A DNA stretch of 64,000 nucleotides. Source: Haliotis asinina (taxonomy: Eukaryota). The stretch lies in assembly GCF_037392515.1 (NCBI RefSeq), contig NC_090285.1, forward strand, positions 70,717,515-70,781,514, in the 5' to 3' direction. Position numbers and translations under genes: made by a program. Of the stretch, positions 3,212 through 59,569 are shown piece by piece (the first letter of the stretch is position 1; each line of letters begins with the position of its first letter). The notes beneath the pieces are model-generated. The model saw only the letters and a program-made list of their open reading frames with translations, made no database searches and was not told the DNA's origin.

Positions 3212-3216
3212 GCCGG
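3212..3216. repeat. Target-site duplication GCCGG, left copy
   Basis: The 5 bp immediately outside the LTR are identical to 7918-7922. Confidence 0.75.
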
Positions 3217-3346
3217 TGTAAGATAACCAACTATGGCGGGCGGGAGCACATGTCTGTTTATTTCAGGTTAGCCGCTTACAACATAATAAATGGAATGTCG
3301 CTTGGGACATAAATAAAAGAATGCCGCTTAAGGCAATTACGTTACA
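3217..3346 (-). repeat. 3' LTR of the gypsy element (130 bp; carries a 13-bp insertion aatgccgcttaag relative to the 5' LTR)
   Basis: Matches 7801-7917 with about 2 substitutions plus one 13-bp indel. TG...CA termini. Contains an AATAAA-like motif. Confidence 0.8.
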
Positions 3347-3357
3347 TCTCCCTCCTT
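3347..3357 (-). promoter_or_regulatory. Polypurine tract (plus-strand primer site) of the retrotransposon
   Basis: Element-sense sequence AAGGAGGGAGA lies immediately upstream of the 3' LTR. Confidence 0.6.
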
Positions 3358-3637
3358 AAGATTAAGAGTCCATGAATGAGGGATAAGATTATAGCACTGG
3401 TAGCGTAAATGTGAAATGTCACTGAAAGTTACGTATACGGCAAAAGTCTTTTTTTTTTTTTTTTTTTTTTTCAGAGCACAGAGTTCACGATGATGATAGC
3501 TATATAAAACGCATAGACAAACTAAATTTGGCACAAGCATTTCTTTGGCACTGCGAAACAAATTAAAGTCTTTCAGGAGAAACCTAACTACTATTAACGT
3601 TGAACTTAACGTATGACCCTAGCACTTTAAGAGTCAT

Positions 3638-4267
3638 TCACAGATCGAGCCTGCTGGGTGGTGCTACACGTCTGCCTGATCTGGTGGTGACAGTCGGATT
3701 GGCTGCCGGGGTGGTGGTGACTGGGCTGCTGACGTCTCTGCGAGGTGAAGGTAGTGCACCATGTTGCACAGAGTATGGTTCGGCGAGCGGCGGTGGTGGT
3801 GTGACGTTTGGGGTGAACTGCATTTCTCCAAGTTGTCGGCTGGGCTGACTGCTCGTGTTTGCTGGAATTGTGACTTTCCTGAGAAACTTGTGGTTCCGCC
3901 TGTAAGTCCCGACATCAGTGGTGACGTGATACGATCTGGGTTTGGAGTGGTGACTCTGGATTACTCCGGGCTTCCATGACTTTCCAGTGTCAACTGGAGC
4001 GAGTCTAACTTGGTCTCCTGGCTGAAGCTCTGGGAGGGGTTTAGCACTCTTCTTAGCATCGTGGTAGAACTTTTGCTTTTGCTTCTCAAGAGTCAAGTGG
4101 CGTTTGGTCTCTTGCCTGTTGTAAGGTTGAGGAATGAGTATCTCACGTGCTGCAGGAAGTGTGTTTTCCTGCTCATTAGTAGCTGGGTCGGAGACAGGTT
4201 GATTCCTTCCAGAGGGGTTGTCCTGTAGTCGAGGAGTGCCAGGTACTTGTCTTCGCTCTTCCTCCAC
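3638..4267 (-). CDS. Integrase C-terminal region of the retrotransposon (post-frameshift frame), with a Pro-rich tail
   Basis: ORF contains ...QKQKFYHDAKKSAKPLPELQPGDQVRL..., the conserved integrase C-terminal GD.V.L region. It overlaps the upstream IN ORF at 4093-4267 in a different frame, implying a single frameshift near 4100-4150. No chromodomain is evident. Confidence 0.6.
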   Translation of the reverse strand: MEEERRQVPGTPRLQDNPSGRNQPVSDPATNEQENTLPAAREILIPQPYNRQETKRHLTLEKQKQKFYHDAKKSAKPLPELQPGDQVRLAPVDTGKSWKPGVIQSHHSKPRSYHVTTDVGTYRRNHKFLRKVTIPANTSSQPSRQLGEMQFTPNVTPPPPLAEPYSVQHGALPSPRRDVSSPVTTTPAANPTVTTRSGRRVAPPSRLDL

Positions 4268-5148
4268 ATATTTTTGACTGTTTGGACTGCCCTTTCAGCT
4301 TCCCCGTTGGAACTTTGGAAGTGTGGACTTGACGTTTCGTGTAGAATATCATAGGACTTACAGAAGTTGCTGAACTCTGCACAATCAAACTGTGGACCGT
4401 TGTCTGTTCTCAGTTTGCTCGGTATTCCGTGGATGCTGAACACCGATTTCATAGCTTCAATGGTGGATGATGCAGTAAGAGACTTGACCTCTATGGCATC
4501 GATGTACTTGGAATAATAGTCGACGAGGACCAGGTATTTTCGGCCCTGGAAGTCGAATAGATCACTCCCAACCATCTGGTAAGGTAAGTCTGGTGGTGGA
4601 GTAGGTTGGAGGGGCTCACTTTGTTGTCTCCTTGAGTATTCAGCACACTTGTCACAGTCTCTGATGGCTTGTTCTGTCTCGTCGTTCATACATGGCCAAT
4701 ACATCACTTCACGAGCTCTCTGTTTGCTCTTCACCATTCCCAGATGGGACTCATGGATGATGTTGATCATGTGTCTGCGTAGAGTAGGTGGTATGACAAT
4801 GCGCAAGCCCTTGTAAATGATGCCATCTGCTACTGAGAGTTGCTCACGTGAATCCCAGTATGGACGGGCTTCAATTGGGACGTTTCTTCTGTCGTCTGGC
4901 CATCCATTTAGGACAACTTCTGTCACATACTTGAGCTCTTTAAGTGTGAGGTCTCTGATTTCTTCATATCTGTCTGGAGTGATATCCAACATGTGGACTC
5001 TGTCCGAATCCAAGACTTCAGAGCTAGTGTGAGCTGTGTTCAAATATGCTCTAGACAAAGCATCAGCTGCCTGCATGTCAGAGCCTTTCCTGTAATTCAC
5101 TACAAGATCATAGGATTGCAGCTTTAACAACATCCGCTGCAGTCTCAT
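4093..5148 (-). CDS. RNase H C-terminus plus integrase (HHCC zinc finger and DDE core) of the retrotransposon
   Basis: The 351-aa ORF contains ADALSRAYL (the RNase H/IN junction motif), HESHLG...CDKCAEY (HHCC), and DLFDF / TDNGPQF / SNGEAER (D,D,E). It is in the same frame as the upstream pol ORF, separated from it only by one stop codon at 5173-5175. Confidence 0.8.
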   Translation of the reverse strand: MRLQRMLLKLQSYDLVVNYRKGSDMQAADALSRAYLNTAHTSSEVLDSDRVHMLDITPDRYEEIRDLTLKELKYVTEVVLNGWPDDRRNVPIEARPYWDSREQLSVADGIIYKGLRIVIPPTLRRHMINIIHESHLGMVKSKQRAREVMYWPCMNDETEQAIRDCDKCAEYSRRQQSEPLQPTPPPDLPYQMVGSDLFDFQGRKYLVLVDYYSKYIDAIEVKSLTASSTIEAMKSVFSIHGIPSKLRTDNGPQFDCAEFSNFCKSYDILHETSSPHFQSSNGEAERAVQTVKNMWRKSEDKYLALLDYRTTPLEGINLSPTQLLMSRKTHFLQHVRYSFLNLTTGKRPNAT

Positions 5149-5172
5149 GGGTGCAGAGAGGATTGGTTTCTT

Positions 5173-7473
5173 TCAAATGATCTCTAGGGGCTTGTGGTCA
5201 TTATACACAACAGTCTCTTTCCCAAAGATGTAGCAATGAAACTTGCTGGCTGCGTACACAATTGACAACATCTCTTTTTCAATTTGCACGTAGCGCTTTT
5301 CTGTCTCTGTAAGTGACCTTGAGGTGAATGCAACTGGTCTGGAATTCTGAATCAGGACTGCTCCCAAGCCTGACTGTGATGCGTCACACTGGATTTCAAC
5401 AGGTTGGTTGACATCGAAGAGAGCGAGTACTGGTTGTGAGCTGCACATCTTCTTCAGCTTGTCAAAGCTGTCTTGCTGTTCATGGTCCCAGTGAAACATG
5501 ACATCTGATTTCAGTAGGATTCGTAGAGGCGCATCAACTTTGCTGAGATCTGGAAGGAACTTTGCTAGGTACTGGACAAGTCCTAGTAGTCTTCGGACTC
5601 CTTCTTTGTCCTCGGGTGCAGGCATTTCAGTAATTGCCTGTACTTTTGCTGGGTCTGGTCTCAAGCCCTCAGCAGACACAATGTGTCCGACGTAGTGGAC
5701 TTCCGATTTCCGGATAGAGCATTTGTCAAAGTTTAGCTTGAGATTGTATCTGGTTGCTCGCTCTACAACTTGTTTCAGAATTTCATTGTGCTGAGCTGTG
5801 TCAACTCCTGCGATGAGGATATCATCCATAATAGCAGCTGCACCATTGATGCCTTCAAGCATCTGATCCATAATCCGTTGATAAATCTCGGGGGCGGACT
5901 TGATACCAAACGGTAGTCTGAGCCAACGATACCTTCCGATGGGAGTATTGAATGTTGTTAGGTATGATGACTTCTTGTCGAGCTTGATCTGTAGAAACCC
6001 TGATTTGGCGTCAAGAGTTGAGAATACCTTGGTCCCAGGAATATTAGCTACGACCTCTTCTATGGTCTTAAGGGGATGATGCTCTCTCAAGATGGCTTTA
6101 TTCAAGTCCTTTGGATCGATGCATATTCTGATTTTGTCCTTTCGGATGGAGACCACCATGGAACTGACCCACTCTGTGGGTTCTTCAACCTTGACGATGT
6201 AGCCATTTTCTTCCATCTCATGGAGTTTTTCCATGATCTTTGGTTTCAGGGCTGCTGGTTGTCTACGAGGAGGGTGAACAACTCCCCTTGCGTCTGGATC
6301 AAGCTTTATACAGTACTCTCCTGGGAGGGTCCCTGTTGTTTTCACGAGTTCCGGGAAATCCGCAAATTGTTTAACGGATTCTGAGCTGTCACTTGTCAGA
6401 TTCACTCGAGCTATGAGTCCTAGCTTTTCAGACGTGTCTCCACTGATCACGTTTTCTTGGTCAATATCAATGATGAGGAAAGTGACGGGTATAGTTTTAC
6501 CTTCGTACTTCACAGGTAGCTGAACAGCTCCTTCTGGATATATCTTGTGGTTAGAATAGGACCGGAGGACTCTTGATGACTTGGCTAATTCACACTGGAT
6601 ATTGATTTTGTCAAAACATGTTTTCACAATGATATTACACTTGGCACCCGTGTCAATACGAACTGTTGCTGGTTTGTCGCTGATTTGTACTGTTTCAATC
6701 CACTTGTCATCACTGTCTTTTTCTTGCTTATGCTGAAGAGAATGAATTTGCAGAAGGTCGTCCTCAGATTCGCTGTCGAACTCGTTGTCGTCATCTGATT
6801 GAGCTTCTTGTAAAGTGTGAACTTGTTTGCGTTTTCTCTTTGTGCACACCTGGATCCAATGGTTTGGCTTTTTACAGTAGTTGCATATAGTGTTTTTGGC
6901 TGGACACTTCCCATCAGTGTGTGCTTTGCTTATTTCTAGACCACACTTGCCACAGGTCCCTTGATCACTGTTTGTTTTAGAGTTCTTGTTTGGATCTTGA
7001 TGCTGTTTCCTCTCGGATTTTCTACTGTTACATTTGTGTGGCTTGTGTCTTGTGTCTTTAAGAGACGAAACTTTCTGATCTTCTCCTCTAATCATAGTGA
7101 GGTGCATTTGAGATACTTCAAATTGCCTACCAATGTCTAGGGCTTTTGCAAGTGTCAAATCTTGACCCTGGTCTAACAGACGTTCTTGAATTTTGGAATG
7201 AGAAACTCCTGCAATAATACTGTCAATTAAGATGTCATCTGGATTTCCATAATCACAGTCCATGAGAATTAACTTAAGGTCCTTCACAAAATTGTCAAAA
7301 TTCTCACCGACTTTTTGTTTCCTTTCTCTCAGCTTGAATCTTGCAATTCTCTTGTTTTTCCTTGGTCTGACATACGTTTCTAACTTGTTCATGATTACGT
7401 TTGGGTTGTCTTCCTCCCCTTCTTCCCATCTTAAAGTTTTATACACTTCACGGCCCTGTCGGCCGATCCACAT
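5173..7473 (-). CDS. Gag (capsid fragment plus zinc knuckle), aspartic protease, reverse transcriptase and N-terminal RNase H polyprotein of the retrotransposon
   Basis: The 766-aa ORF carries a CX2CX4HX4C knuckle (about 6844-6885), protease IDTGA (6646-6654), RT motifs LDAKSGFLQIKLD and IMDDILIAG (5821-5829), and RNase H ...VYNDHKPLEII followed by a stop that is in frame with the next ORF. Confidence 0.85.
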   Translation of the reverse strand: MWIGRQGREVYKTLRWEEGEEDNPNVIMNKLETYVRPRKNKRIARFKLRERKQKVGENFDNFVKDLKLILMDCDYGNPDDILIDSIIAGVSHSKIQERLLDQGQDLTLAKALDIGRQFEVSQMHLTMIRGEDQKVSSLKDTRHKPHKCNSRKSERKQHQDPNKNSKTNSDQGTCGKCGLEISKAHTDGKCPAKNTICNYCKKPNHWIQVCTKRKRKQVHTLQEAQSDDDNEFDSESEDDLLQIHSLQHKQEKDSDDKWIETVQISDKPATVRIDTGAKCNIIVKTCFDKINIQCELAKSSRVLRSYSNHKIYPEGAVQLPVKYEGKTIPVTFLIIDIDQENVISGDTSEKLGLIARVNLTSDSSESVKQFADFPELVKTTGTLPGEYCIKLDPDARGVVHPPRRQPAALKPKIMEKLHEMEENGYIVKVEEPTEWVSSMVVSIRKDKIRICIDPKDLNKAILREHHPLKTIEEVVANIPGTKVFSTLDAKSGFLQIKLDKKSSYLTTFNTPIGRYRWLRLPFGIKSAPEIYQRIMDQMLEGINGAAAIMDDILIAGVDTAQHNEILKQVVERATRYNLKLNFDKCSIRKSEVHYVGHIVSAEGLRPDPAKVQAITEMPAPEDKEGVRRLLGLVQYLAKFLPDLSKVDAPLRILLKSDVMFHWDHEQQDSFDKLKKMCSSQPVLALFDVNQPVEIQCDASQSGLGAVLIQNSRPVAFTSRSLTETEKRYVQIEKEMLSIVYAASKFHCYIFGKETVVYNDHKPLEII

Positions 7474-7782
7474 ACCTAGCCAGCCCGAACGATCTTTATC
7501 GTTTGCTTCTCACTGTGGGCCTTTAAAAATAAAAGTCACATGTTGTTTGAATCTCTGAAATTCCTCGAAAAGATCTGGAGCATTCCAATCGAGTGTAGGG
7601 TGATCAAAATGCATACTAGACGCCATGTTTGACGTTTTACCGACTTGTACTTGAAAATGTTCAAAACAAGTATTTCTGAAGTGTTGTGGATTGCAAAGTC
7701 AATTACCGATACACAATGAATTCCTGTAATCTTTGTAACGATGTCAAATGTCTGACAGCTTTTCATTGGGTATTTTTCCGAT

Positions 7783-7800
7783 TAACCGCTTCTGACACCA
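7783..7800 (-). other. Primer-binding site of the retrotransposon (tRNA-complementary, begins TGG)
   Basis: The complement reads TGGTGTCAGAAGCGGTTA directly after the ...CA end of the 5' LTR. The cognate tRNA was not identified. Confidence 0.55.
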
Positions 7801-7917
7801 TGTAAGATAACCAACTATGGCGGGCGGGAGCACATGTCTGTTTATTTCCGGTTAGCCGCTTACAACATAATAAATGGAATGTCGCTTGGGACATAAATAA
7901 AAGGCAATTACATTACA
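7801..7917 (-). repeat. 5' LTR of the gypsy element (117 bp)
   Basis: Near-identical to 3217-3346 with TG...CA termini. It is followed on the plus strand by GCCGG. Confidence 0.8.
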
Positions 7918-7922
7918 GCCGG
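7918..7922. repeat. Target-site duplication GCCGG, right copy
   Basis: Identical to 3212-3216. Confidence 0.75.
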
Positions 7923-12545: not shown

Positions 12546-12782
12546 TACTCATGTTTACTTAATGAAAGTTCTAAGGCTCTGGAAAGATTTGATGAAATGG
12601 ATAAGGTCATGAAAGTTGAAATACATGTGTAAAGTGGCAAGTAGAGGGTTTAATACATATTGATTTGTGTGCTGACTAAATAATTACTTCCAGAGTGGTT
12701 GCAGATGTAATAATTAGTTCAGCTTTTTTCCTTAGGAGGCTATAAAACATTAAGATTTAAATATCCCTATTACTTGACACAG

Positions 12783-12981
12783 ACAACACTTGTCATTGGA
12801 AATGATCCAGAGAAGTTCGATGTGTCATCAAAATGCAGGATGGCTGTCAAATATGGCATTCCAGTTGTCTCCCCTGATTATGTGTCAGACGCCATTAGAC
12901 ATGGCCAGCTACCTCTCACAGATGAGTACATCATTGGCGGGAGGAGCAAGACATCAGATTTCAAGTCAGGAAAAATTACAG
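12783..12981 (+). CDS. PARP4: PARP4 exon 2 (BRCT domain)
   Basis: Acceptor cacag|ACA. TTLVIGNDPEKFDVSSKCRMAVKYGIPVVSPDYVSDAIRHGQLPLTDEYIIGG... has a BRCT-like fold signature. Donor ACAG|gtaaaa, phase 1. Confidence 0.7.
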
Positions 12982-13272
12982 GTAAAATGTGATCCAGTTG
13001 TAGACACTGAATCAACTAGTGATTACGAACAAGTTTATCACAAGGAATCTACTGGTAGTGAAGTCAGTATTAGACACCAATGTTTGTTCAGAAGCAATGA
13101 GATCATCTCTGTGTCTGTTGTTTTTCTTTCAATGGTGTCATTTTATTGGACAGATAAAGATTTTTTTCGGAATCAGATGTAAATCCTTTGCTGCATTTCC
13201 TTGTGTTTACTGTATGTAAATCTGCCATCTTGAATATGTCATGTGTAGGAGGTGTTTAAATATTCATTGCAG

Positions 13273-23825: not shown

Positions 23826-24489
23826 TTGTTGGACTGTTGTAGGCCTTACTAACCGTACTCCCAGTTGCAGTAAGATGTTTGTAGATGACTGACTTAGACT
23901 GATGTACTATGCAACACTACTGTTGGACTGTTGTAGGCCTTACTAACCGTACTCCCAGTTGCAGTAAGATGTTTGTAGATGACTGACTTAGACTGATGTA
24001 CTATGCAACACTACTGTTGGACTGTTGTAGGCCTTACTAACCGCACTCCCAGTTGCAGTAAGATGTTTGTAGATGACTGACTTAGACTGATGTACTATGC
24101 AACACTACTGTTGGACTGTTGTAGGCCTTACTAACCGCACTCCCAGTTGCAGTAAGATGTTTGTAGATGACTGACTTAGACTGATGTACTATGCAACACT
24201 ACTGTTGGACTGTTGTAGGCCTTACTAACCGCACTCCCAGTTGCAGTAAGATGTTTGTAGATGACTGACTTAGACTGATGTACTATGCAACACTACTGTT
24301 GGACTGTTGTAGGCCTTACTAACCGCACTCCCAGTTGCAGTAAGATGTTTGTAGATGACTGACTTAGACTGATGTACTATGCAACACTACTGTTGGACTG
24401 TTGTAGGCCTTACTAACCGCACGCCCAGTTGCAGTAAGATGTTTGTAGATGACTGACTTAGACTGATGTACTATGCATCACTACTGCAG
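23826..24489. repeat. Minisatellite, 94-bp unit with about 7 copies. The last copy is mutated into the acceptor of exon 14.
   Basis: gttggactgttgtaggccttactaaccg.actcccagttgcagtaagatgtttgtagatgactgacttagactgatgtactatgcaacactact repeats. The final unit reads ...tatgcatcactactgcag|GTGATAG. Confidence 0.85.
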
Positions 24490-24714
24490 GTGATAGTTCT
24501 CCAGGAGTACTACAACAACAGTGACACTGCTGTGGAGGCCAAGTATGTGTTTCCTCTAGATGACATGGCGGCTGTGTGTGGCTTTGAAGCGTTCATCAAT
24601 GACAAGCACATTGTAGGCGAGGTCAAAGAGAAGGAGCAAGCTCACAAGGAATACAGGAAGGCTGTCAGTGAGGGTCATGGAGCTTATCTGATGGACAGAG
24701 ATGAAGAGACACCG
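24490..24714 (+). CDS. PARP4: PARP4 exon 14 (VIT domain, N-terminal part)
   Basis: VIVLQEYYNNSDTAVEAKYVFPLDDMAAVCGFEAFINDKHIVGEVKEKEQAHKEYRKAVSEGHGAYLMDRDEETP resembles vertebrate VIVFQTYTNKSHVPIEAKYIFPLDDKAAVCGFEAFINGKHIVGEIKEKEEAQQEY.EAVTQGHGAYLM. Donor CCG|gtaagt. Confidence 0.85.
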
Positions 24715-25200
24715 GTAAGTATGGGTGAAGGTCAGCAGTGAGGGTCATGGAGCTTATCTGATGGACTGAGATGAAGAGACACCGGTAAGTATGGGTGAAG
24801 GTCAGCAGTGAGGGTCATGGAGCTTATCTGATGGACTGAGATGAAGAGACACCGGTAAGTATGGGTGAAGGTCAGCAGTGAGGGTCATGGAGCTTATCTG
24901 ATGGACTGAGATGAAGAGACACCGGTAAGTATGGGTGAAGGTCAGCAGTGAAGGTTATGTTGCTTATCTGATGGACACAGATGAAGAGACACTGATAAGT
25001 TTGGGTGAAGATCAATACTGAAGTTCGTGGAGGTGATCTGATGGACAGAGATGAAGAGACCAGTAGGTTTGGGAGAAGGTCAGTAGTGAGGGTCGTGGAG
25101 GTGATCTGATGGACAGAGATGAAGAAAGAAAGGTAAGTTCAGTCACCAGTGAAGGTTTTGGGGTGTGTCATAATGGAAGGTCATTTAGCCTTTCTGATGG
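24645..25200. repeat. 70-bp tandem array of about 6 copies that duplicates the last 45 nt of exon 14 plus its GT donor
   Basis: The unit ...agtgagggtcatggagcttatctgatggac(a/t)gagatgaagagacaccg|gtaagtatgggtgaaggtcagc repeats at 24715, 24785, 24855 and 24925, then degenerate copies. Copies 2-4 carry TGA (ggacTgag) and the read-through frame hits CAG CAG TGA. Confidence 0.85.
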
Positions 25201-25339
25201 ACAGACATGTTAAGGTGGCAGTAAGTTAGAGGTGAAGATGTGACAGGGATGTTGTGTGGGAAGGTGATTACTGAAAGGTAGCAAGCCATATTGGTTTTGC
25301 TATAAATACTAAAACCAGTTTCTGTGTTTAATGTTTCAG

Positions 25340-25504
25340 GATGTTTTTACAGTGAGTGTTGGCAACCTCCCACCCCATGCATCTGTCCTCATCAAGATTA
25401 CTTATGTAGCTGAGCTACAGGTCGAAGCAGAACTTATAAGTTTCCGGTTACCAGGCAGTGTGGCACCATGGAAACAAGACTCCGCTGCTGCTGAAATCAC
25501 TCAG
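25340..25504 (+). CDS. PARP4: PARP4 exon 15 (VIT domain)
   Basis: Acceptor tttcag|GAT. DVFTVSVGNLPPHASVLIKITYVAELQVEAELISFRLPGSVAPWKQDSAAAEITQ resembles vertebrate DVFTVSVGNLPPKAKVLIKITYITEL...ATVAPWQQD. Donor CAG|gtacgc. Confidence 0.85.
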
Positions 25505-25711
25505 GTACGCATTCTGACACTAAGACTGTGTGCTTATGAAATAATTGCAACTGTGAAAGTATGGAATTTTCATTGTTTGAATTTTCTCACGATGATGAAA
25601 TATGATGATATGTTTTGTTTTGTTTTATATAGATGTTCTTATGCATATTATTTAGAAACACTTCTTGTGTTGCTGGTTTGAAGATTTTTCAGTTGTTGCT
25701 AATGGTTACAG

Positions 25712-25825
25712 ACTGAGGTAGAAACACACAAGGTTCAGTCAGGAGACACTACTGTGCAGGTTGCTGTGGAGATGCCTTTTGACATTCGCTCAATACAGTG
25801 TCCCTCACACAAAATCAGAATGAAG
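25712..25825 (+). CDS. PARP4: PARP4 exon 16
   Basis: Acceptor ttacag|ACT. TEVETHKVQSGDTTVQVAVEMPFDIRSIQCPSHKIRMK resembles vertebrate ..SFSLTMSIEMPYVIEFI.SDTHELKQK. Donor AAG|gtgaga. Confidence 0.7.
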
Positions 25826-26509
25826 GTGAGAAACACTCAAGCATTTTCAGATTTTTATTGATTTCAGAGGTGGTTTTAAAATTCATAGAAAGACTGCAGT
25901 CTAATCTATGTTTCATTCTCAATAAACATTTGCCTGGGGACTGTTAAACCTGTTCATTATGTATGACAAGTGAAAAATAAAATTTACTTACCATGTAGTT
26001 CTGTTTTTAGCCCACCTTTTTCAATAATATCAATTATTTCTGTTGCCATTGGGGGAAGTTTGAATTTCTCATGGTAAAAGATTGAAATGCCCAGTAATCG
26101 AAACAGGCAGATATTTGAATCTCATGAATATATACTGGACAAAAATAGTTAAGGATATATATAAATTTTGAAATTATGAATAATTATCTATTTATTCCTT
26201 GACACACTGATGAAATATCAGTCATAAAAGTACCAATATCCCTAATTTATTTTGTCCAGCATGTATGGTGATCTGAAGTTATGTGGTTCAACATAAAGCT
26301 GTCCTTAGTGTAGTGATACTGGATCAATAGGATCTGAGAGTTGTGTATCGGTCATCTGCCTATTTGTCTGTAGAGTAATGAAAGATGAAAGTTTTGTCTG
26401 GCACTATCATGAACTTTGCTCATCAGAATGGACAAGATTGATGATAAATGAAAAGTGTGATATGTTTTAAGAATTTAGTGACAGAGTCCACCTGGAAACA
26501 CTAGTATCA

Positions 26510-27483
26510 CATAGTCCTGTCATGTAGTGCTGTCATGTAGTTGTGTCTTGTAGTGCTGTCAGGTGTCTACTCATGTAACTGTTGGTCTACAGTGTCTACT
26601 CATGTAGCTGTTGGTCTACAGTGTCTACTCATGTAACTGTTGGTTTATAGTTTCTACTCATGTAACTGTTGGTTTATAGTTTCTACTCATGTAACTGTTG
26701 GTTTATAGTTTCTACTCGTGTAACTGTTGGTTTATAGTTTCTACTCATGTAGCTCTTGGTCTGTAGTGTCTACTCATGTAACTGTTGGTTTATAGTTTCT
26801 ACTCATGTAGCTGTTGGTTTATAGTTTCTACTCATGTAACTATTGGTTTATAGTTTCTACTCATGTAACTGTTGGTTTATAGTTTCTACTCATGTAACTG
26901 TTGGTTTATAGTTTCTACTCATGTAACTGTTGGTTTATAGTTTCTACTCGTGTAGCTGTTGGTTTATAGTTTCTACTCATGTAACTGTTTGTCTGTAGTG
27001 TCTACTCATGTAACTGTTGGTTTATAGTTTCTACTCATGTAACTGTTGGTCTACAGTGTCTACTCATGTAACTGTTGGTTTATAGTTTCTACTCATGTAA
27101 CTGTTGGTTTATAGTTTCTACTCGTGTAACTGTTGGTTTATAGTTTCTACTCGTGTAACTGTTGGTTTATAGTTTCTACTCGTGTAGCTCTTGGTCTGTA
27201 GTGTCTACTCATGTAATTGTTGGTTTATAGTTTCTACTCATGTAACTGTTGGTCTGTAGGGTCTACTCATGTAACTGTTGGTCTGTAGTGTCTACTTATG
27301 TAACTGTTGGTCTGTAGTGTCTACTCGTGTAGCTGTTGGTCTGTAGTGTCTACTCGTGTATCTGTTGGTCTGTAGTGTCTACTCATGTAGCTGTTGGTCT
27401 GTAGTGTCTACTCATGTAGCTGTTGGTCTGTAGTGTCAACTCATGTAGCTGTTGGTCTGTAGTGTCTACTCATGTTCCTCCAG
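26510..27483. repeat. Minisatellite, 29-bp unit with about 32 copies. Its final unit forms the acceptor of exon 17.
   Basis: Units of the form (g/t)tctactcatgtaactgttggtttatagt and gtctactcatgtagctgttggtctgtagt. The last unit is mutated to gtctactcatgttcctccag|AGAACTG. Confidence 0.85.
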
Positions 27484-27621
27484 AGAACTGCTGCTAAGGC
27501 GGTTGTGGAGATGTGTGATGGACAGTCAATACAAGATGGCTTCCACCTCCTGATTGGGCTGGCTGAGATACACGTGCCTCGGATGTGGGTTGAGAGACAT
27601 CCGGACAAGGACATGCATCAG
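27484..27621 (+). CDS. PARP4: PARP4 exon 17
   Basis: RTAAKAVVEMCDGQSIQDGFHLLIGLAEIHVPRMWVERHPDKDMHQ resembles vertebrate ..CKAVISTMEGSSLD.SGFSLHIGLSAAYLPRMWVEKHPEKE. Donor CAG|gtaggc, phase 0. Confidence 0.8.
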
Positions 27622-28110
27622 GTAGGCTGGCAGGGGAATGATTGTATGGTTTGTGGATGGAGAGACATGCATCAGGTAGGCTGGCAGGGGAATGATTGTA
27701 TGGTTTGTGGATGGAGAGACATGCATCAGGTAGGCTGGCAGGGGAATGATTGTATGGTTTGTGGATGGAGAGACATGCATCAGGTAGGCTGGCAGGGGAA
27801 TGATTGTATGGTTTGTGGATGGAGAGACATGCATCAGGTAGGCTGGCAGGGGAATGATTTTATGGTTTGTGGATGGAGAGACATGCATCAGGTAGGCTGG
27901 CAGGGGAATGATTGTATGGTTTGTGGATGGAGAGACATGCATCAGGTAGGCTGGCAGGGGAATGATTGTATGGTTTGTGGATGGAGAGACATGCATCAGG
28001 TAGGCTGGCAGGGGAATGATTTTATGGTTTGTGGATGGAGAGACATGCATCAGGTAGGCTGGCAGGGGAATGATTGTATGGTTTGTGGATGGAGAGACAT
28101 GCATGAACCA
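27604..28110. repeat. 54-bp tandem array of about 9.5 copies that reiterates the exon 17 3' end plus its GT donor, in frame
   Basis: The unit acatgcatcag|gtaggctggcaggggaatgattgtatggtttgtggatggagag repeats. Each copy carries CAG|gtaggc at codon phase 0. The exon frame stays open through all copies (the 252-aa ORF at 27472-28230, encoding VGWQGNDCMVCGWRDMHQ per unit). Confidence 0.85.
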
Positions 28111-28235
28111 GGGGATCAAAGCTGCATGTTGTATGTGTATTTTAATTGTTGTTGTTTTAGTAATATCATGTTGTGTCAGGTTCATGTTGAATATTCTCTC
28201 CCTATTTTTTCTTTGATCTTCATTCTGTAATCTAG

Positions 28236-28422
28236 GCCTGCATGTTGACATTTTACCCTGAGTTTGAAGCGGATGAGGATGATGATGTGGAGATTGTGTT
28301 CCTCCTTGACCTCTCCAACTCCATGTCAGGTGATGCAGTGCTGGATGCCAAGAAGCTGTTGATGATGTTGCTGCACAACTTGCCACCACGCTCCACCTTC
28401 AACGTCCTCTGCTTCGGAACAG
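28236..28422 (+). CDS. PARP4: PARP4 exon 18 (start of the vWA domain, with a MIDAS-like DxSxS motif)
   Basis: Acceptor atctag|GCC. ACMLTFYPEFEADEDDDVEIVFLLDLSNSMSGDAVLDAKKLLMMLLHNLPPRSTFNVLCFGTG resembles vertebrate EACMLVFQPDLD...VIICLDCSSSMEGVTFLQAKQIALHAL.....VNIIQFGTG. Donor G|gtcagt, phase 1. Confidence 0.8.
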
Positions 28423-28573
28423 GTCAGTTTCATCCACGCAATGTGTTGCTAAGGGTGCGATTTGATGATCAATTGATGAAAAGATGTGGACAGATAGATC
28501 ATTATTAATGATATTGGGAGCACTGGGAGTAATGTTTGAGTAACCATGGACATGGTATTGGTGATGTTGTCAG

Positions 28574-28647
28574 GTCACCGGGAGCTGTTCCCAACCAGCC
28601 AGCCCAACACAAACACCAACATCCATTCTGTGGAGACATTCCTCAAG
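28574..28647 (+). CDS. PARP4: PARP4 exon 19 (vWA domain)
   Basis: Acceptor gtcag|GT. (G)HRELFPTSQPNTNTNIHSVETFLK resembles vertebrate YKELFSYPKHITSNTMAAEFIM. Donor AAG|gtgggt. Confidence 0.65.
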
Positions 28648-28649
28648 GT

Positions 28650-29507
28650 GGGTGGAATCTTGTTGCCAAACAACCATGACACTTTTTGGATAATTTCAAC
28701 GGGATTCCAGTCAGTTAACTTCTGCTTTTGTCTGTATCAGTACAGTAATTGTAAACTCTGTTGTCAGGGGAGTCCAGTCAGTTAACTTCTACTTTTGTCT
28801 GTATCAATACAGTAATTGTAAACTGTGTTGTCAGGGGAGTCCAGTCAGTTAACTTCTACTTTTGTCTGTATCAATACAGTAATTGTAAACTGTGTTGTCA
28901 GGGGAGTCCAGTCAGTTAACTTCTACTTTTGTCTGTATCAATACAGTAATTGTAAACTGTGTTGTCAGGGGAGTCCAGTCAGTTAACTTCTACTTTTGTC
29001 TGTATCAATACAGTAATTGTAAACTGTGTTGTCAGGGGAGTCCAGTCAGTTAACTTCTACTTTTGTCTGTATCAATACAGTAATTGTAAACTGTGTTGTC
29101 AGGGGAGTCCAGTCTGTTAACTTCTACTTTTGTCTGTATCAATACAGTAATTGTAAACTGTGTTGTCAGGGGAGTCCAGTCAGTTAACTTCTACTTTTGT
29201 CTGTATCAATACAGTAATTGTAAACTCTGTTGTCAGGGGAGTCCAGTCAGTTAACTTCTACTTTTGTCTGTATCAATACAGTAATTGTAAACTGTGTTGT
29301 CAGGGGAGTCCAGTCTGTTAACTTCTACTTTTGTCTGTATCAATACAGTAATTGTAAACTGTGTTGTCAGGGGAGTCCAGTCTGTTAACTTCTACTTTTG
29401 TCTGTATCAATACAGTAATTGTAAACTGTGTTGTCAGGGGAGTCCAGTCAGTTAACTTCTACTTTTGTCTGTATCAATACAGTAATTGTAAACTGTGTTG
29501 TCAGGTG
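28650..29507. repeat. Minisatellite, 68-bp unit with about 12.5 copies, beginning within a few bp of the exon 19 donor
   Basis: ggggagtccagtcagttaacttctacttttgtctgtatcaatacagtaattgtaaactgtgttgtcag repeats. Each unit ends in an acceptor-like tgttgtcag. Confidence 0.85.
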
Positions 29508-32639: not shown

Positions 32640-34260
32640 GGCCCTGACGTTGACAGGTTGTGGAGTCGATGTTGACAGGTTGTGGAGTGTGTGTTGACAG
32701 TTTGTGGAATGGATGTTAGCATCTGGTGACCTTGATATTGACATGTTGTCTCCACAACATATCAGCATTCTACATGTCAACATCCACTCCACAACATGTC
32801 AACATCCACCCAACGACATATCATCATCCTCTCCACAACATGTCAACATCCACCCAACGACATATCATCATCCTCTCCACAACATGTCAACATCCACCCA
32901 ACGACATATCAGCATCCTCTCCACAACATGTCAACATCCACCCAACGACATATCATTATCCTCTCCACAACATGTCAACATCCACCCAACAACATATCAG
33001 CATCCTCTCCACAATGTGTCAACATCCCCCCAACGACATATCAGCATCCTCTCCACAACATGTCAACATCCACCCAACGACATATCATCATCCTCTCCAC
33101 AACATGTCAACATCCACCCAACAACATATCAGCATCCTCTCCACAATGTGTCAACATCCACCCAACAACATATCAGCATCCTACATGTCAACGTCAACTC
33201 CACAACATGTCAACATCCACCCGACAACATATCGGCATCCTACATGTCAACGTCAACTCCACAACATGTCAACATCCACCCAACAACATATCAGCATCCT
33301 CTCCACAATGTGTCAACATCCACCCAACAACATATCAGCATCCTGCATGTCAACGTCAACTCCACAACATGTCAACATCCACCCAACAACATATCGGCAT
33401 CCTACATGTCAACGTCAACTCCACAACATGTCAACATCCACCCAACAACATATCAGCATCCTCTCCACAATGTGTCAACATCCACCCAACAACATATCAG
33501 CATCCTACATGTCAACATCCACTCCACAACATGTCAAAACCCACTCCACAAAATGTCAACATCCACTCCATGACATGTGAACATCCACAACATGTCAAAA
33601 CCCACTCCACTACATGTCAGCATCCACTCCACAGCATATCAGCATCCACTCCACAGCATGTCAGCATCCTCTCTACAACATGTCAATATCCTCTCCACTA
33701 CATGTCAACATTCTCTCCACTACATGTCAACATCCTCTCCACTACATGTCAACATCCACTCCACTACATGTCAACATCCACTCCACTACATGTCAACATC
33801 CACTCCACAACATGTCAACATCCGCTCCACTGCATGTCAACATCCACTCCACTACATGTCAACATCCACTCCACAACATGTCAACATCCGCTCCACTACA
33901 TGTCAACATCCACTCCACTACATGTCAACATCCACTCCACTACATGTCAACATCCACTCCACTACATGTCAACATCCACTCCACAACACGTCAACAGCCT
34001 CTCCACTACATGTCAGCATCCACAGCACAACATGTCAACATCCACTCCACAGCATGTCAGCATCCACAGCACAACATGTCAACATCCACTCCACAGCATG
34101 TCAGCATCCTCTCTACAACATGTCAATATCCTCTCCACTACATGTCAACATCCACAGCACAACATGTCAACATCCTCTCCATTACACGTCAACAGCCTCT
34201 TAAGACGTTGTGGAGAGGATGTTGACATGTAGTGGAGTAGATGTTGACATGGTGTAACTG
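32640..34260. repeat. Intronic satellite array of about 1.6 kb. The base unit is 22 bp (ctccactacatgtcaacatcca), with 44/66-bp higher-order variants, and it is strongly strand-asymmetric (C/A-rich). Both ends carry 2-3 inverted copies of the unit.
   Basis: Main array in one orientation from about 32745 to 34200. Reverse-orientation units lie at 32645-32712 (gttgacaggttgtggag...) and 34205-34250 (gttgtggagaggatgttgacatgtagtggag...). The shared flank agagtatgtggc.c...gttgaca occurs at about 32621 and about 34262. The array generates ORFs up to 478 aa that are artefactual. Confidence 0.8.
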
Positions 34261-45899: not shown

Positions 45900-47035
45900 G
45901 GTATCTCATTCCCAAACTTTCTGTGTCCCATTCCCAAACCACTCTGTATCCCACTCCTAAACCCTTTGTATATCACTCCCAAAACCTCTGTATCCCACTC
46001 CTAAACCCTTTGTATCTCACTCCCAAACCCTCTGTATCCCACTCCTAAACCCTTTGTATCCCAAACTGAGACCTCTGTATCCCATTCCCACAACCTCTGT
46101 ATCCCAAACCCAAACCCTCTGTATCCCATCCCGACAACCTCTGTATCCCAAACCCAAACCCTTTGTATCCCATACCCACAACCTCTGTATCCCAAACCCA
46201 AACCACTCTGTATCCCACTCCTAAACACTTTGTATCTCACTCTCAAACCCTCTGTATCCCATTCCCACAACCTCAGTATTCCAAACCCAAACCCAACCCC
46301 TCTGTATCCCATTCCCACACCCTCTGTATCCCACTCCTAAACCCTTTGTATCTCACTCCCAAACCCTCTGTATCCCACTCCGAAACCCTTTGTATCTCAC
46401 TCCCAAACCACTCTGTATCCCACTCCTAAATCCTTTGTATCTCACTCCCAAACCCTCTGTATCCCACTCCTAAACCATTTGTATCTCACTCCCAAACCCT
46501 CTGTATCCCACACCCACACCCTCTGTATCCCACTCCTAAACCCTTTGTATCTCACTTCCAAACCACTCTGTATCCCAATCCTAAACCCTTTGTATCTCAC
46601 TCCCAAACCCTCTGTATCCCACACCCCCACCCTCTGTATCCCACTCCTAAACCCTTTGTATCTCACTCCCAAACCACTCTGTATCCCACTCCTAAACCCT
46701 TTGTATCTCACTCCCAAACCCTCTGTATCCCATTCCCACAACATTTGTATCCCAAACCCAAACCCTCTGTATCCCATTCCAACACCCTCTGTATCCCAAA
46801 CCCTCTGTATCCCACACCCAAACCACTCTGTATCCCACTCCTAAACCCTTTGTATCTCACTCCCAAACCCTCTGTATCCCACACCCACACCCTCTGTATC
46901 CCACACCCACACCCTCTGTATCCCACTCTCAAACCCTCTGTATCCCAAACCCAAACCCTCTGTATCCCACACCCACACCCTCTGTATCCCACACCCACTG
47001 TATCCCACACCCAAACCACATGTCATTGTATCCCA
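45900..47035. repeat. Satellite array of about 1.1 kb, with a roughly 22-bp base unit (ctctgtatcccactcctaaacc / ctttgtatctcactcccaaacc), starting exactly at the tail of the preceding SINE
   Basis: The array begins ...aaactcactcactcactcacttggtatctcattcccaaactttctgtgtcccattcccaaacc... A SINE-body fragment in the same orientation follows the array. The array generates artefactual ORFs on both strands (46001-47077). Confidence 0.8.
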
Positions 47036-49782: not shown

Positions 49783-52700
49783 TGATATAGGCTTTCAACG
49801 ATACTTCTTTAAACATAATCAAATTCATCGAAAGAGGTATCTTTGTTACCGCCGATTAACAATTTCGGTGTATAAATTCGGTAATAGCGTGACATGACTC
49901 AGGTGACTCATTTACGTAAAATGACACGCCTACCAAACCATTAGCCAATCAGCATAGAGCACCCCCAAACTGCTGTCAATCAACCAAGCTAACATCAGGT
50001 GGCAAATCAGAAAGGAACAACACAATGTGACATGTTCCGGTAACAGCAAAGTTTCAAGTTCAAACATTTGAATTATTACCAGCAAACTGCGAGACAGTTT
50101 GAAAAGTGAGAATTGGAAATGAAGCCCGATGACATGAAGTTGGTGGAACTGAGATTGTTAGTGGCAGCAGTATTTGCGCAAGTGGAAAGAGGCTGTGATG
50201 TGACTAGGATTGCGATGCCATTAACTGATGTTCCATCGTGCGCATGCTCTTGTCGAGGCGTTACAACGTCATTAACGCTCACGGATAATTTTGAGTTGTT
50301 TCTTTATGTTAACCACAATGTATCACTTTATCCAAAGTTCATTAGGGTACCTGAGTGCAAGGGAATTCCCTTGTCGTGTAAAGGTATTACCCGACATTCT
50401 TCAGGTCCGAAAGTAGTCCGGTTCGTTGGGCGTGGCTTAGCTTTTTAGATTCATTGGGAAATGAAATCAAAAGAAATGTTCCCAGTTAACCAATCAGATT
50501 GCCAAAATTTTAATGAACACAATAAAAATTTAATTATTTCTTTATAAATAGTCAACTAAACATTAACATGAAATACCATTTTGATCCATTCTTTCATAGT
50601 TACGTCATTATGATTCTGTCATAAAATCATGGCAAGTGGAAAATAAGTCAGGACATTCTTGGAGAGGCAAGTGGCTTTTGAAAACATTTTTGAACCCCTG
50701 CTCAAACCATTGATAAAGGAATCGGTATCCATGCTTTCTTATTCCTCAATATGAACAAGCATCTGTAGTGCTTTTCTTGACTCTGTCCTGGCTTGAAATA
50801 AAATGGTCCAAAACAATCGACCCCTACATGACTGAAAGGTGATATGTTCAGAGTCACCCTGTCTGATAGAAGGTCGAGCCATCTTTTCACAACTGTGATA
50901 CATGTCTCCTACATGTGATGCACTTTGTAAGCACTTTTTTCACAGACTGTCTTTTGCTGATTATCCAGTACTTCTCACGGATGACAGATAGTACATGTTC
51001 CTTACCCAAATGTCCAAGCTCTTCATATGTCGAACATCCTGTCAGAGACGCAGTCTGATGTTCCTTCAGCAGAATTATGTGGTGTTTCTCAGATTCAGAG
51101 ATTGGAGCATTCATCAATCGTCCTTCAACGCAGAACATGCCATATGGATTGAGGAAAGGGTCCAAAGCTTGAATAGAACTGGAACCTTTCATTGGCTTTC
51201 CTTTGGGAAGAGAGACAATTTCCTAGTGATGCACATACCTAATCACCCTTTTACCTGCCTGTTGAATTTCTTTCACTGTTAGTGGTTCCTTTGAGGTAGT
51301 GACATATTTACCTACCTTTGCTCTCATTTGTAAACATTCTTTCAGTCTCATGATCCATGCAACAGTTTTTTTGTAACTTATGCCATGAAGGTTACCTTTT
51401 GAGTAATCTGTGCAACTGTCATTGTTTCATTGGACCCTACTTCACTGTTGCCATTTTCAGCTCTAAACTTTCACTTGGTATGTCAAATGCTTCAAGCATC
51501 TCCAGTCAGTATTCTTCGTCTTTTCCCATGTATCCGAGTATCTCTAGAAGAAATATTGTCTGCATCAACTCCATGGGCACATCATCTGCTGGATTAAGTG
51601 CAGAAGTCACATAACACCAATTTTCTGGAAATGAAGAGTTGCAGATTTCAAAAACTCTGTTTGCAACAAAAGTCAGATACCTTTGAGAAGAATTATTGAT
51701 ACAATTTAGCACAATCATACTAATTGTCCAAAATGTTGACTTGTCAACTTTCAGTTTCAGCTCAGACCTGACCATACTGTCCAGCTTTGCACTGAAAACA
51801 GCAGCTGATAGTTCCAGTCTTTGGACTGTAATACTCTTGACAGGAACAAGTCTAGATTTTCCAGCAAGAAATGAGATATGCACTGTTCCAGCTGCATTCC
51901 CATGTCTCACATATGACACTGCTCCATAACCCTTCGTTGAAGTGTCTGCAAAATGATGTAAACTGTAGGACATCAATTCTCCAAAATTGTCTGGTACTAT
52001 GCAACGAGGTATGGTAAGTTTTCGAGCCTTGTTTGCCACTTTTGACATTTTCAGGTGCTAAACGAGAATCCCAATCTTTCTTTAGCTGACACTCATTTTG
52101 AAATATCATCTTAGCTTGTAATACTGGGCTTAGAAATCCACTAGGATCATACAGTGAACTGAGTACACTAATAACTCCTCTTCTTGTCATAGGCTTGTCC
52201 TTAGGTGTGAACTTGAAATCTAATTTATCAGTGTCTGTATTCCACCTGACCCCTATGGCCTTGTGTTCTGGAATCTGACTGCAGCTGATATCATGATCCT
52301 GAACAATCTTCACTCTTTCCTTGACTGGTATTGTTTCAACAACCTTGCAGCTGCTGCTTAACAATTTTGTCAACTTAAATCCACCTTTTTGTAGTGGTTG
52401 GTCCTGTTCTTGGACTAAGTGGATTTCTTTGTCATCCATGGAAATGGACTTCAAGCAGTCATTGATGTAGACGTTATCAGTTTCAACAGTTTCTTGGTTG
52501 AAATCATGATGTGTCTCGATGTGTATCAGCAACTCTGACTTGATGAAACATTGCTTCAGTGTCACAGGTTATGTTGATTTTTGGAACTTCCAACAATGTG
52601 TTTGTCAAGTGTGGGCCTTGAAAAATTTGAGTATTCAAACTTTCCTGGCAATACTCACACAAAAACACTTACCTGGTTTCTTCTCATTGGTAACAGAGTG

Positions 52701-53911: not shown

Positions 53912-54961
53912 ATATGATACTAGATACACTACAGTGTGCATTGTTGCCGGAAGAGCCTCCCGAGGAAAGTAAGCCACATGCAGCACAATTTCAACAAAGG
54001 ATGAGAAGTCGTATGAAATGTTCTCTTCCTCCATTGTCTGACACTGGGGGCCTTGAACAGGCAGTGGCAGCTGAAAGGATTGTTGATGAGTTTGAGGAGG
54101 AGTCCGAGGATGAAGACATGGGGTTTGGATTGTTTGATGATGACATTCCTACAAGTTCCAAATATGTCACTGTCAGACACGAGGATGTGCCCGCAAACAT
54201 AGCAATAGAAGGAGGCTCCCCACCAACACTGTCACTAAAGACAGGTTTTGCAGGAAAGGATATTGATGATGCCGCACAATCAGCGAAAAAGAAGAAAAAG
54301 TCCAAAGCATTCATTCCTCCTCCTCCTCCAGTCATCCATCCAGTGATGTCTGCCAGACAAGACTCCCTACTTGCTAAAGGCACTAGAGGAACATTATTCT
54401 CTGTTGATGCTGCAAGTCATGGTCGTGCTTCTCTGCTTCAGCAAATAGGTACTGGCAAACAGTTGAAGAAAGCTGTTGGGCCTCAATTGCAAGGTTACTC
54501 ATCTACGCAACTTCAAGCTGAAATGTTTTCCCTTGCTAAAGGAGCTCCTCTCCCTGCTCGATATATGCTTACTAGAGCCTCACCTCCCCCTACTGGTCAT
54601 CCAGGACTAACTCCTCCTCCCCCTCCCCCTCCCCTTCCCCCTCACCACCATCGTGAAGCCACACCTCTTCCACCTCCACCAGCAGGACTTAAGGCAGCCC
54701 CACCTCCACCTCCAGGACTAGCTCCTCCCCCCTCTCCACCCCCCCCTCCAGGACTAGCTCCTCCCCCCTCTCCTCCTCCCCCTCCAGGACTAGCCCCAAA
54801 CCAACAACTTATAAGATCACGGAGAACAAAATCTGTGACTTCTTTTGGCAAGATTTGCCCTCCGTCACCTCCACCAGATGTCTCCAGGACATCTCCTCCT
54901 GCAAGAGCTGATGCATTGGCCAAAAGGGCAAGAAGTAGAAGCAGAGATCGAGATTTAGCAG
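53912..54961 (+). CDS. PARP4: PARP4 exon 30, a large C-terminal-region exon with an acidic stretch, a K-rich patch, a WH2-like motif and polyproline repeats
   Basis: Acceptor tttctttcag|AT. (D)MILDTLQCALLPEEPPEE...DEFEEESEDEDMGFGLFDDD...KKKKKSKAFIPPPPP...RASLLQQIGTGKQLKKAVG... then (PGLAPPPSPPPPPGLAPPPSPPPPPGLAP). Donor G|gtaaga. Phase 1 on both sides matches the flanking exons. Confidence 0.6.
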
Positions 54962-55779
54962 GTAAGATTGGAAAATCTGACTTTCACTGTCAACAGTTTT
55001 AGGAAACTTGGCATAGACCAGGGCCTAGGTTTTCGAAGCTCTTTAGAGCTGGTTAATGTTAAGTAATTTAATGTTAATGTATTGCACTTATGACTGTCTT
55101 AGCATTAAGAGAGCTTTGAAAATATAGGCCCAGCGGTCTTTTCCACACGATGATTTTAATCTTAAATCCTGTATATAACAACCTACGATTGTAGTGGTCT
55201 TTTCCACAAGACAATTTTAATTTTAAGTCCTGTATATAACAACCTACGACTTTAAAGTGTGTGATGGACTTAAGCTCTGTGTTTAACAATGGCTTTTGAT
55301 TTACTGTTGAAACTAGCATTTGGTAGGGTCATTAATACACTGTAGATACCAGTGTTTGATAGGGTCATTGATGCTCTGTAGATACAGTGAGACTGTGTAT
55401 AGAGGGAGAAGAAACTCCTCGAAACCCCTGAACGTATGCCGAATGTCGATACGTAACCAGTGTAGCCAATATGGCGGCAGCGTAGTATTTAATATTGAGT
55501 CCAGTCTGTTTTCAACAGCTGATTAAATTCGCTGAGTGTCGTGACAACTGAAACCCTACATGTAGAAGATAAGTAAACTATTTTGTCACTGCAGTTTAAG
55601 TCAAATAATTGGTATTAGTGTCAGTATTAGGACGGTAGACTTTTTGTAAAGTTTCAACTCGTTATGTTATCACTCACTGGCTTTCACTTGATTCACCTTG
55701 AAGATAGACTAAATTGTGCCGATAAAAAATTCTTTCACACGTTTGTTTAATTTTTAGAAGGGAAACATGTCTTAGGTTG

Positions 55780-57440: not shown

Positions 57441-57828
57441 CTTGATCTAAGAAAACATCAAGTGACTGTCAGATGATTTGTCCTTTCAAATACGTAGGGG
57501 CCAGGGGGATATGTCATCTTTTGATGACTCTTGTAGTCACTGAGTATTGAAACATTGTGTATCATTTTGTGTCTGAATTCATCATACAGCACTGACCTCC
57601 TGTCTTGGCAAAATATATTATTGCAGCCATTGTAGTAAACAAAACAGTAAATTGCATACAATGTTGATAGTTACATATTTTTCATGACATTGCTGTGGGA
57701 AATACTGTATCTGTTTCAATGATAATTATCCTTGTTATCGCGGTCGTCCTGATGGTGTAAAGGACATTCCTTGAATAGTTTGGATAACCGTCACAGCCTT
57801 ATAATACCTGGAGACTGTGTTTCTTCAG

Positions 57829-59342: not shown

Positions 59343-59569
59343 GTGAGTGGGAGTACTAACAAGTGTCCTTCTCTGTCCAGACTGTCTTCTCACTCATTTG
59401 GTGAATATCATAGAGATATAACAAAAACTTCACTTGACTCAGGTTCAAGTGCTTAAGGTAGCTCTTCAATCTATTTTCAGTAACCAGTGGACTCAATCCA
59501 AAAGCAATACAAAATTAGTGCTAGATTAAGAGTAATCTCAAATATAGCAGATGTTATGTAGTGTAATGC

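Follow-up and report, generated by a model that had tools for sequence, protein, structure and literature searches.

The closest described relatives of the element reported here belong to the C-clade of Gypsy retrotransposons, a group that includes SURL, Steamer and the branches C9/C10 and is characterized by short long terminal repeats (LTRs), a 12-bp primer-binding site (PBS), TGGTGTCAGAAG, a single gag-pol open reading frame (ORF) and a length of 4.5-5 kb (PMC8905726). In sequence, this PBS complements the 3' end of tRNA-Leu from sea urchin (PMC8905726). An element of this type lies at positions 3217-7917 of the 64,000-nucleotide stretch of contig NC_090285.1 that was analyzed (hereafter, the window). 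It is identified, with a probability of about 90%, as one copy, complete in length but no longer active, of a Ty3/gypsy (Metaviridae) element of the Mag lineage C-clade (SURL/Steamer group).

Several published properties of the clade allow a direct comparison with this locus. Farhat et al. (2022) equated with the Gypsy C-clade both the proteins annotated 'K02A2.6-like' and what Metzger et al. broadly called 'Steamer-like elements'; within one C-clade family, they reported reverse transcriptase (RT)/RNase H identities of at least 55%, averaging 70% (PMC8905726). Among the clades modelled by Benachenhou et al. (2013), Mag C has the shortest LTRs on average (174 bp), and these carry the motifs TGTNATRT at the 5' end and AYANAACA at the 3' end, which are associated with integrase recognition (PMC3601003). 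The C-clade is also the most abundant Gypsy clade of molluscs (Thomas-Bulle et al. 2018, PMC6238403). Steamer itself measures 4,968 bp and encodes gag-pol in a single ORF, and its LTRs, of 177 bp each, run from TGTAACA to ATAAACA; across the Steamer family, LTRs measure 153-219 bp, start TGTAACA and end (A/T)TAAACA (PMC8905726). Integration of Steamer produces a target-site duplication (TSD) of 5 bp, with a preference for the target CATNnnnnnNATG (Hart et al. 2023, PMC10663159).

The element in the window is a full-length LTR retrotransposon of 4,701 bp on the minus strand. It is bounded by direct repeats of 130 bp (3217-3346) and 117 bp (7801-7917), which share an ungapped 103-bp core (BLAST E-value 6e-47). 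As a first-pass annotation of this DNA had claimed, the two repeats differ by two substitutions and one 13-bp indel. In minus-strand reading both start TGTAA and end TTACA, with the TG..CA termini described in that annotation, and they are flanked by a TSD, GCCGG, whose two copies are identical at 5/5 positions in the context GGAG/GCCGG/ATGC. The PBS, TGGTGTCAGAAGCGGTT, adjoins the 5' LTR without a gap, and the polypurine tract (PPT), AAGGAGGGAGA, adjoins the 3' LTR in the same way. All of these features can be read directly from the DNA. Because the PBS, the PPT and the TSD fix the boundaries on both sides, the 117- and 130-bp repeats are not parts of longer LTRs. A BLAST search of the 64-kb window returned only the self-match of the element, with no additional copies and no solo LTRs.

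The coding content provides further evidence. A single frame extends from the gag start codon through gag, protease, RT and RNase H into most of the integrase; gag and pol both lie in this frame, and no frameshift separates the two. Pfam matches were obtained for RVT_1 (7e-29), RT_RNaseH_2 (2e-30), RT_RNaseH (5e-25), Integrase_H2C2 (5e-11) and rve (3e-12), together with a weak match for retropepsin. On the minus strand they follow the order RVT_1, RT_RNaseH_2, Integrase_H2C2, rve, and the protease motif IDTGA is found upstream of the RT. Direct reading also identified the CCHC knuckle CNYCKKPNHWIQVC, the RT motif IMDD, the RNase H motif CDAS, and the HHCC and D,D,E residues of the integrase. 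The Ty3/gypsy coding order (gag, protease, RT, RNase H, integrase) proposed in the first-pass annotation is thus borne out by domains and catalytic motifs alike, with homology established for the RT, RNase H and integrase. Since only 280 nt separate the pol stop codon from the PPT, there is no space for an env gene. The coordinates of all features are collected in Table 1.

Table 1. Features of the element by position in the window, followed by the related elements whose LTRs were measured.
Feature	Position	Strand	Remarks
TSD copy beside 3' LTR (GCCGG)	3212..3216	.	Identical to 7918-7922
3' LTR, 130 bp, begins TGTAACGT, ends CTTACA	3217..3346	-	13 bp extra relative to 5' LTR; AATAAA 46 nt from 3' end
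Polypurine tract AAGGAGGGAGA	3347..3357	-	..AAGGGAGA at the equivalent place in relatives
3' untranslated region, 280 nt	3358..3637	-	Comparable to 266 bp in the Ylistrum relative
Integrase C-terminal region, shifted frame; TGA stop 3638-3640	3638..4165	-	Aligns to relatives' C-termini
Lesion 3: frameshift, ~7 bp deleted in conserved integrase motif LLMGRRPRNTLPA	4160..4168	-	Ten-relative alignment
RNase H end and integrase	4168..5172	-	Integrase_H2C2 ~4633-4794; rve core ~4321-4575
Integrase D, D, E residues	4549-4569, 4387-4410, 4291-4308	-	
Lesion 2: in-frame TGA in RNase H	5173..5175	-	Phe in 10/10 aligned relatives
Gag, protease, RT and RNase H, one frame	5176..7509	-	Pfam and motif reading
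RNase H	~5206-5490	-	
RVT_1; IMDD at 5821-5832	~5677-6138	-	
Protease IDTGA	6643-6657	-	
Gag zinc knuckles	6904-6954, 6844-6885	-	Motif reading
Lesion 1: in-frame TGA, gag codon 39	7510..7512	-	S, V, A or C in relatives
Gag N-terminus, start ATG 7624-7626 (MASSMHFDHPTLDW...)	7513..7626	-	Aligns to relatives' N-termini, 100% query coverage
5' leader, 157 nt, PBS to gag ATG	7627..7783	-	
Primer-binding site TGGTGTCAGAAGCGGTT	7784..7800	-	First 12 nt (7789-7800) equal the Steamer/C-clade tRNA-Leu PBS
5' LTR, 117 bp, begins TGTAATGT, ends CTTACA	7801..7917	-	TATA-like TTTTATTTATG at nt 15-25; AATAAA at nt 72-77
TSD copy beside 5' LTR (GCCGG)	7918..7922	.	Direct reading
Relative L001, Ylistrum balloti (P0002)			LTRs 118/118 bp, 100% identical; 4,658 bp; no matching TSD
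Relative L002, ENA contig (P0004)			LTRs 130/130 bp, 100% identical; 5,123 bp; TSD aatgt
Relative L003, ENA contig (P0008)			LTR 159 bp, 100% identical; 4,409 bp; TSD ggttg
Relative L004, Cirrhinus (fish)			LTR ~167 bp; ~4,545 bp; TSD ccagt
Relative L005, Mya arenaria (P0056)			LTR 130 bp, 97.7% identical; 4,729 bp; TSD aagat
Relative L006, Mizuhopecten			LTR 177 bp; ~4,775 bp; TSD tcttg

To place the element, a repaired 1,328-aa polyprotein was used as the query of a protein search with a cut-off of E<=1e-20. This returned 225 homologues, the best of which share 57% identity over 100% of the query; the best matches are single proteins of ~1,300-1,350 aa. Where names are given, they read 'uncharacterized protein K02A2.6-like' or 'Gypsy retrotransposon integrase-like', and the sources include Ylistrum balloti, Mizuhopecten yessoensis, Mya arenaria, Lingula anatina, Crassostrea virginica and several fishes. 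Over the RT/RNase H region (436 aa), identity to ~30 homologues is 68-72%. In a neighbour-joining tree, the element falls within a scallop/brachiopod subgroup, beside a fish/frog subgroup.

The DNA around seven of the homologues was examined, and a recognizable LTR pair was present in six, which were measured (Table 1); for the seventh (P0010, L007) no LTR pair was found within the flanks examined. All six measured relatives have LTRs that start TGTAA(T/C) and end TTACA, and all six carry, directly after the 5' LTR, a PBS beginning TGGTGTCAG, in most cases TGGTGTCAGAA(G). Their PPTs end in AGGGAGA or similar, and five of the six are flanked by a 5-bp TSD. In the exception, from Ylistrum, the bases at the two TSD positions differ (cttag at 2215-2219, gctgg at 6878-6882), possibly because two copies have recombined or because the assembly was wrongly joined here. 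The Mya arenaria element (P0056) was also considered as Steamer itself, which its 130-bp LTRs and 4,729-bp length rule out.

The assignment to the C-clade draws on several features. The first 12 bases of the PBS (7789-7800) match the published Steamer/C-clade tRNA-Leu PBS, TGGTGTCAGAAG, at 12/12 positions, and the start of the 5' LTR, TGTAATGT, fits the Mag C motif TGTNATRT at 8/8. The sizes agree with the clade, both here (LTRs of 117/130 bp, element of 4,701 bp) and in the relatives (118-177 bp, 4.4-5.1 kb). As in the described members, gag and pol form a single ORF, in the same frame here and as single proteins in the relatives, with the order protease, RT, RNase H, integrase and no env. 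The purine-rich PPT, the 5-bp TSD and the range of hosts (marine invertebrates and fishes) are shared as well. The annotation of the nearest homologues as 'K02A2.6-like' lends indirect support, because Farhat et al. equated that name with the C-clade (PMC8905726).

Four points weigh against this identification or limit its detail. The end of the 3' LTR, ATCTTACA, matches the Mag C motif AYANAACA at only 6/8 positions, the window element reading TCTTACA. The placement was made from structural hallmarks, homologue names and published descriptions, and not from a tree with named SURL, Steamer and Mag references. No tRNA gene was found in the window or in the seven fetched loci, and the tRNA-Leu assignment is taken from the literature. 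Finally, the U3/R/U5 boundaries derive from motif positions alone. Beyond the divergent 3' motif, the copy differs from the typical C-clade member in being dead, with three lesions, and in having LTRs at the low end of the range, compared with 153-219 bp in the Steamer family and a Mag C mean of 174 bp. The clade is well described and very abundant, and the window element is a new but ordinary, decayed member of it.

The short LTRs can be understood from the relatives. Those from Ylistrum, from one ENA contig (P0004) and from Mya arenaria have LTRs of 118-130 bp, as in the window element, and are ~70% identical to it in RT/RNase H. Their PBS starts TGGTGTC (TGGTGTCAGAA in Ylistrum and Mya, TGGTGTCTAGAAG in the ENA contig), and they share with the window element an internal LTR block, ATGT(T/A)TGTAAGCG, and the TTACA end. 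The first 12 LTR bases of the Ylistrum element, TGTAATGTAATT, are identical to those of the window element, and the LTRs of the window, Ylistrum and Mya elements can be aligned, having in common their opening bases, the block ATGT(T/A)TGTAAGC and a TTACA terminus. The LTR length of 117-130 bp is a family trait that varies continuously up to ~177 bp among close relatives. The first-pass annotation had called such short LTRs rare; this is true of Metaviridae at large but does not apply to the close relatives (118, 130, 130, 159, ~167 and 177 bp). Elsewhere, mag of Bombyx and Jule probably have LTRs of 77 bp and 202 bp, figures that carry no weight in the present argument.

Whole-protein identity to the window element is 56-57% for P0002 and P0004; for P0056 it is 55%, across 57% of the query. 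Because these values lie at 55-57%, the window element constitutes a different family from these three relatives under the 80-80-80 rule. The Ylistrum and ENA-contig copies also differ from it in condition: whereas the window copy is decayed, theirs have uninterrupted ORFs of 1,330-1,340 aa (1,330 aa in Ylistrum) and LTR pairs that are 100% identical, and for these reasons both are probably active.

On one reading, which is considered less likely than not, the window element and its Ylistrum, Mya and ENA-contig relatives would together form an unnamed sub-branch of Mag C. Its LTRs of 117-130 bp, accommodating promoter, R and polyadenylation signal in ~120 bp, would then be among the shortest working LTRs of metazoan Ty3/gypsy elements. 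The sub-branch would still be active in some scallops, as the 100% identical LTR pairs and intact ORFs suggest, and would occur in molluscs, brachiopods and, more distantly, fishes. Such a host spread would be in keeping with the horizontal transfers that have been described for elements of the Steamer-like kind.

The distribution of the relatives shows a further pattern. Full-length relatives from scallops, a brachiopod and teleost fishes are almost equally similar to the window element (52-57% identity), while the match from a frog is shorter (56% over 68% of the query). In the neighbour-joining tree, copies from vertebrates cluster in one subgroup, surrounded by those from invertebrates. 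This pattern would fit the published horizontal transfer of Steamer-like elements.

The window element carries three disabling lesions, two in-frame TGA codons and one frameshift, at which it was compared with ten full-length relatives in an alignment (Table 1). The first-pass annotation had counted only two, overlooking the TGA at gag codon 39. The in-frame stop that it reported in RNase H is confirmed as a TGA, and the integrase frameshift exists as well but lies at ~4160-4168 rather than at 4100-4150; at this site the RRPRN motif is intact in the relatives. Judged from the alignment, the three lesions are ordinary inactivating mutations and not recoding signals, and the element can no longer make Gag-Pol.

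The age of the insertion was estimated from the LTRs. Two substitutions in 117 aligned sites give a divergence of K=0.017 (Poisson 95% 0.002-0.062), which corresponds to ~0.9-8.6 million years (My) at 1e-9 to 1e-8 mutations/site/year, with outer bounds of ~0.1-31 My. The estimate is rough because one of the two substitutions falls at a CpG site and the window is depleted in CpG (observed/expected 0.39 for the window overall and 0.60 for the element). The insertion described as young in the first-pass annotation is fairly recent, and 'young' in a relative sense only. The 13-bp difference between the LTRs falls in the presumed U3 and postdates the insertion; the Mya LTR, set beside the two, weakly suggests that the 117-bp form is the original one.

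When this divergence is applied to the 3,984 coding bases, ~34 coding substitutions are expected since insertion, of which ~1.6 would create stops. With two stops seen (P(>=2)=0.46), neutral decay after insertion suffices to explain them. An alternative is that some or all three lesions were already present in the inserted RNA, in which case the copy would have been non-autonomous, with an intact sibling mobilizing it in trans. Such trans-mobilization is common among defective LTR elements, but the divergence of the LTRs already accounts for the observed number of stops and makes the additional assumption unnecessary; a defective founder is considered unlikely. Two exact-pattern scans of metagenome contigs, one for the LTR-PBS junction and one for the LTR end, found no sibling copies.

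The first-pass annotation had also raised the prospect that LTRs of such exceptional shortness mark a Ty3/gypsy lineage not yet described. The 117-130 bp measured here do lie below the Steamer range (153-219 bp) and the Mag C mean (174 bp), and the nearest protein is only 57% identical. Yet the PBS, the 5' LTR motif, the ORF organization, the size and the TSD all agree with the described C-clade, close relatives have LTR lengths spread continuously over 118-177 bp, and the ~70% RT/RNase H identity to many relatives is within the range of a single C-clade family (minimum 55%, mean 70%). With six related elements sharing similar termini, a PBS of the same beginning and a similar PPT, a separate lineage is very unlikely, and the argument for it from LTR length does not stand.

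Membership in the Steamer family in the strict sense, as amplified in the transmissible leukaemia of clams, is in turn highly improbable. The window element resembles Steamer of Mya arenaria (Arriagada et al. 2014) in its identical 12-bp PBS, its single-ORF Gag-Pol, its 5-bp TSD and its similar size (~4.7 kb), and the host appears bivalve-like. Its LTRs, however, start TGTAATG (TGTAACG in the 3' LTR) and end TCTTACA, in contrast to TGTAACA and ATAAACA in Steamer, and at 117 and 130 bp both are shorter than any in the 153-219 bp family range. The total length (4,701 vs 4,968 bp) and the PPT (AAGGAGGGAGA vs AAAGGAAAAAGGA) differ as well. The preferred Steamer target, CATNnnnnnNATG, is missing at the insertion site, where the flanks offer an ATG one base off and on one side only. 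The relative from Mya arenaria, the host of Steamer, departs from it in the same direction, with 130 bp against 177 bp for the LTR and 4,729 bp against 4,968 bp overall. According to Farhat et al., moreover, assignment to Steamer is possible only by phylogenetic tree (PMC8905726). Because the Steamer PBS is present while the Steamer LTR termini and length are absent, the element is placed in the Mag C-clade but outside Steamer proper.

Stop readthrough and frameshifting are known between the gag and pol of certain retroviruses and retrotransposons. That the window copy is still functional on this precedent, its TGA codons being read through or recoded, as the first-pass annotation had envisaged for the stop in RNase H, and its frameshift being programmed, is barely credible, since the stops lie away from the gag/pol boundary (at gag codon 39 and inside RNase H), the ten relatives carry sense codons at both sites within one uninterrupted ORF, the frameshift costs ~7 bp of a conserved integrase motif and also truncates the integrase, and the number of stops agrees with neutral decay.

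The Mag C-clade identification allows a life history to be proposed, using the known biology of the family as a guide. Genomic RNA would have been transcribed from a source copy, starting in its 5' LTR under the TATA-like box TTTTATTTATG (nt 15-25), and polyadenylated downstream of the AATAAA at LTR nt 72-77. This signal lies 46 nt from the LTR end in the 5' LTR, and 39-56 nt from it in three relatives. The positions of these motifs would allow lengths of ~45, ~45 and ~25 nt for U3, R and U5, respectively. The RNA would have been translated as a single Gag-Pol polyprotein. Minus-strand DNA would then have been primed by host tRNA-Leu at the PBS (TGGTGTCAGAAG), and plus-strand synthesis at the PPT. 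A 5-bp staggered cut by the element's own integrase would have produced the GCCGG duplication. The two LTRs would have been identical at insertion and would later have acquired the two substitutions and the 13-bp indel, while the internal region suffered two nonsense mutations and the ~7-bp integrase deletion.

The main use of these results is in annotation: the stretch calls for masking as a decayed Gypsy element (Mag C-clade) and is not to be mistaken for a gene. In addition, intact members of the sub-branch work with LTRs of ~118-130 bp, which LTR finders with a 100-bp minimum nearly miss, and such short-LTR elements would offer compact models for mapping a minimal U3-R-U5. A 23-nt homopolymer is located inside the 3' untranslated region of the element (3449-3471), a T run on the plus strand and an A run on the element strand.

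The element is situated 3.64 kb upstream of the start codon of a PARP4-like gene, in agreement with the ~3.6 kb given in the first-pass annotation, and is antisense to it; at this position an effect on the promoter of the gene is conceivable. The gene is encoded on the plus strand, with a likely ATG at ~11564 in the first BRCT exon; another BRCT exon spans 12714-12989, and the catalytic, VIT and vWA exons follow further on. The host is mollusc-like: at best, the exons are 72-86% identical to mollusc proteins (72% in Crassostrea gigas, 74% in Solemya velum).

The introns of the PARP4-like gene are full of near-perfect minisatellites (23827-29505, 32772-34194, 45901-46997 and others), at a density that is unusual for a single gene. 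The arrays include units of 94 bp (7 copies, 99%), 29 bp (31 copies), 54 bp (9 copies, 99%), 67 bp (12 copies, 98%) and 22 bp (66 copies in one array and 50 in another). At 24666-25125 there is a 70-bp tandem array of 6.6 copies, with 91% identity, whose start lies within the VIT-domain exon. Its unit combines the last ~50 coding nt of the exon (16-17 codons) with the splice donor GGTAAGT, and tblastn finds the same peptide three further times in series. Because the donor is repeated with each unit, several potential donor sites follow the VIT-domain exon.

A degenerate BEL/Pao fragment on the minus strand (50887-52565) appears to lie within or near the PARP4-like gene. It matches the Pao Peptidase_A17 domain in two frames (1e-22 and 1.5e-9) and Integrase_H2C2 (2.8e-8). 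Two long plus-strand ORFs are located further downstream, at 53914-55002 (362 aa) and 57771-59456 (561 aa), and no Pfam family was found in either; a look-up in the gene-position index also gave no exact match. The first has a proline-rich sequence and a weak WH2 motif, and the second is Q-rich with GGRGFGG repeats. Both may be large exons of the C-terminal region of the PARP4-like gene or of a neighbouring gene.

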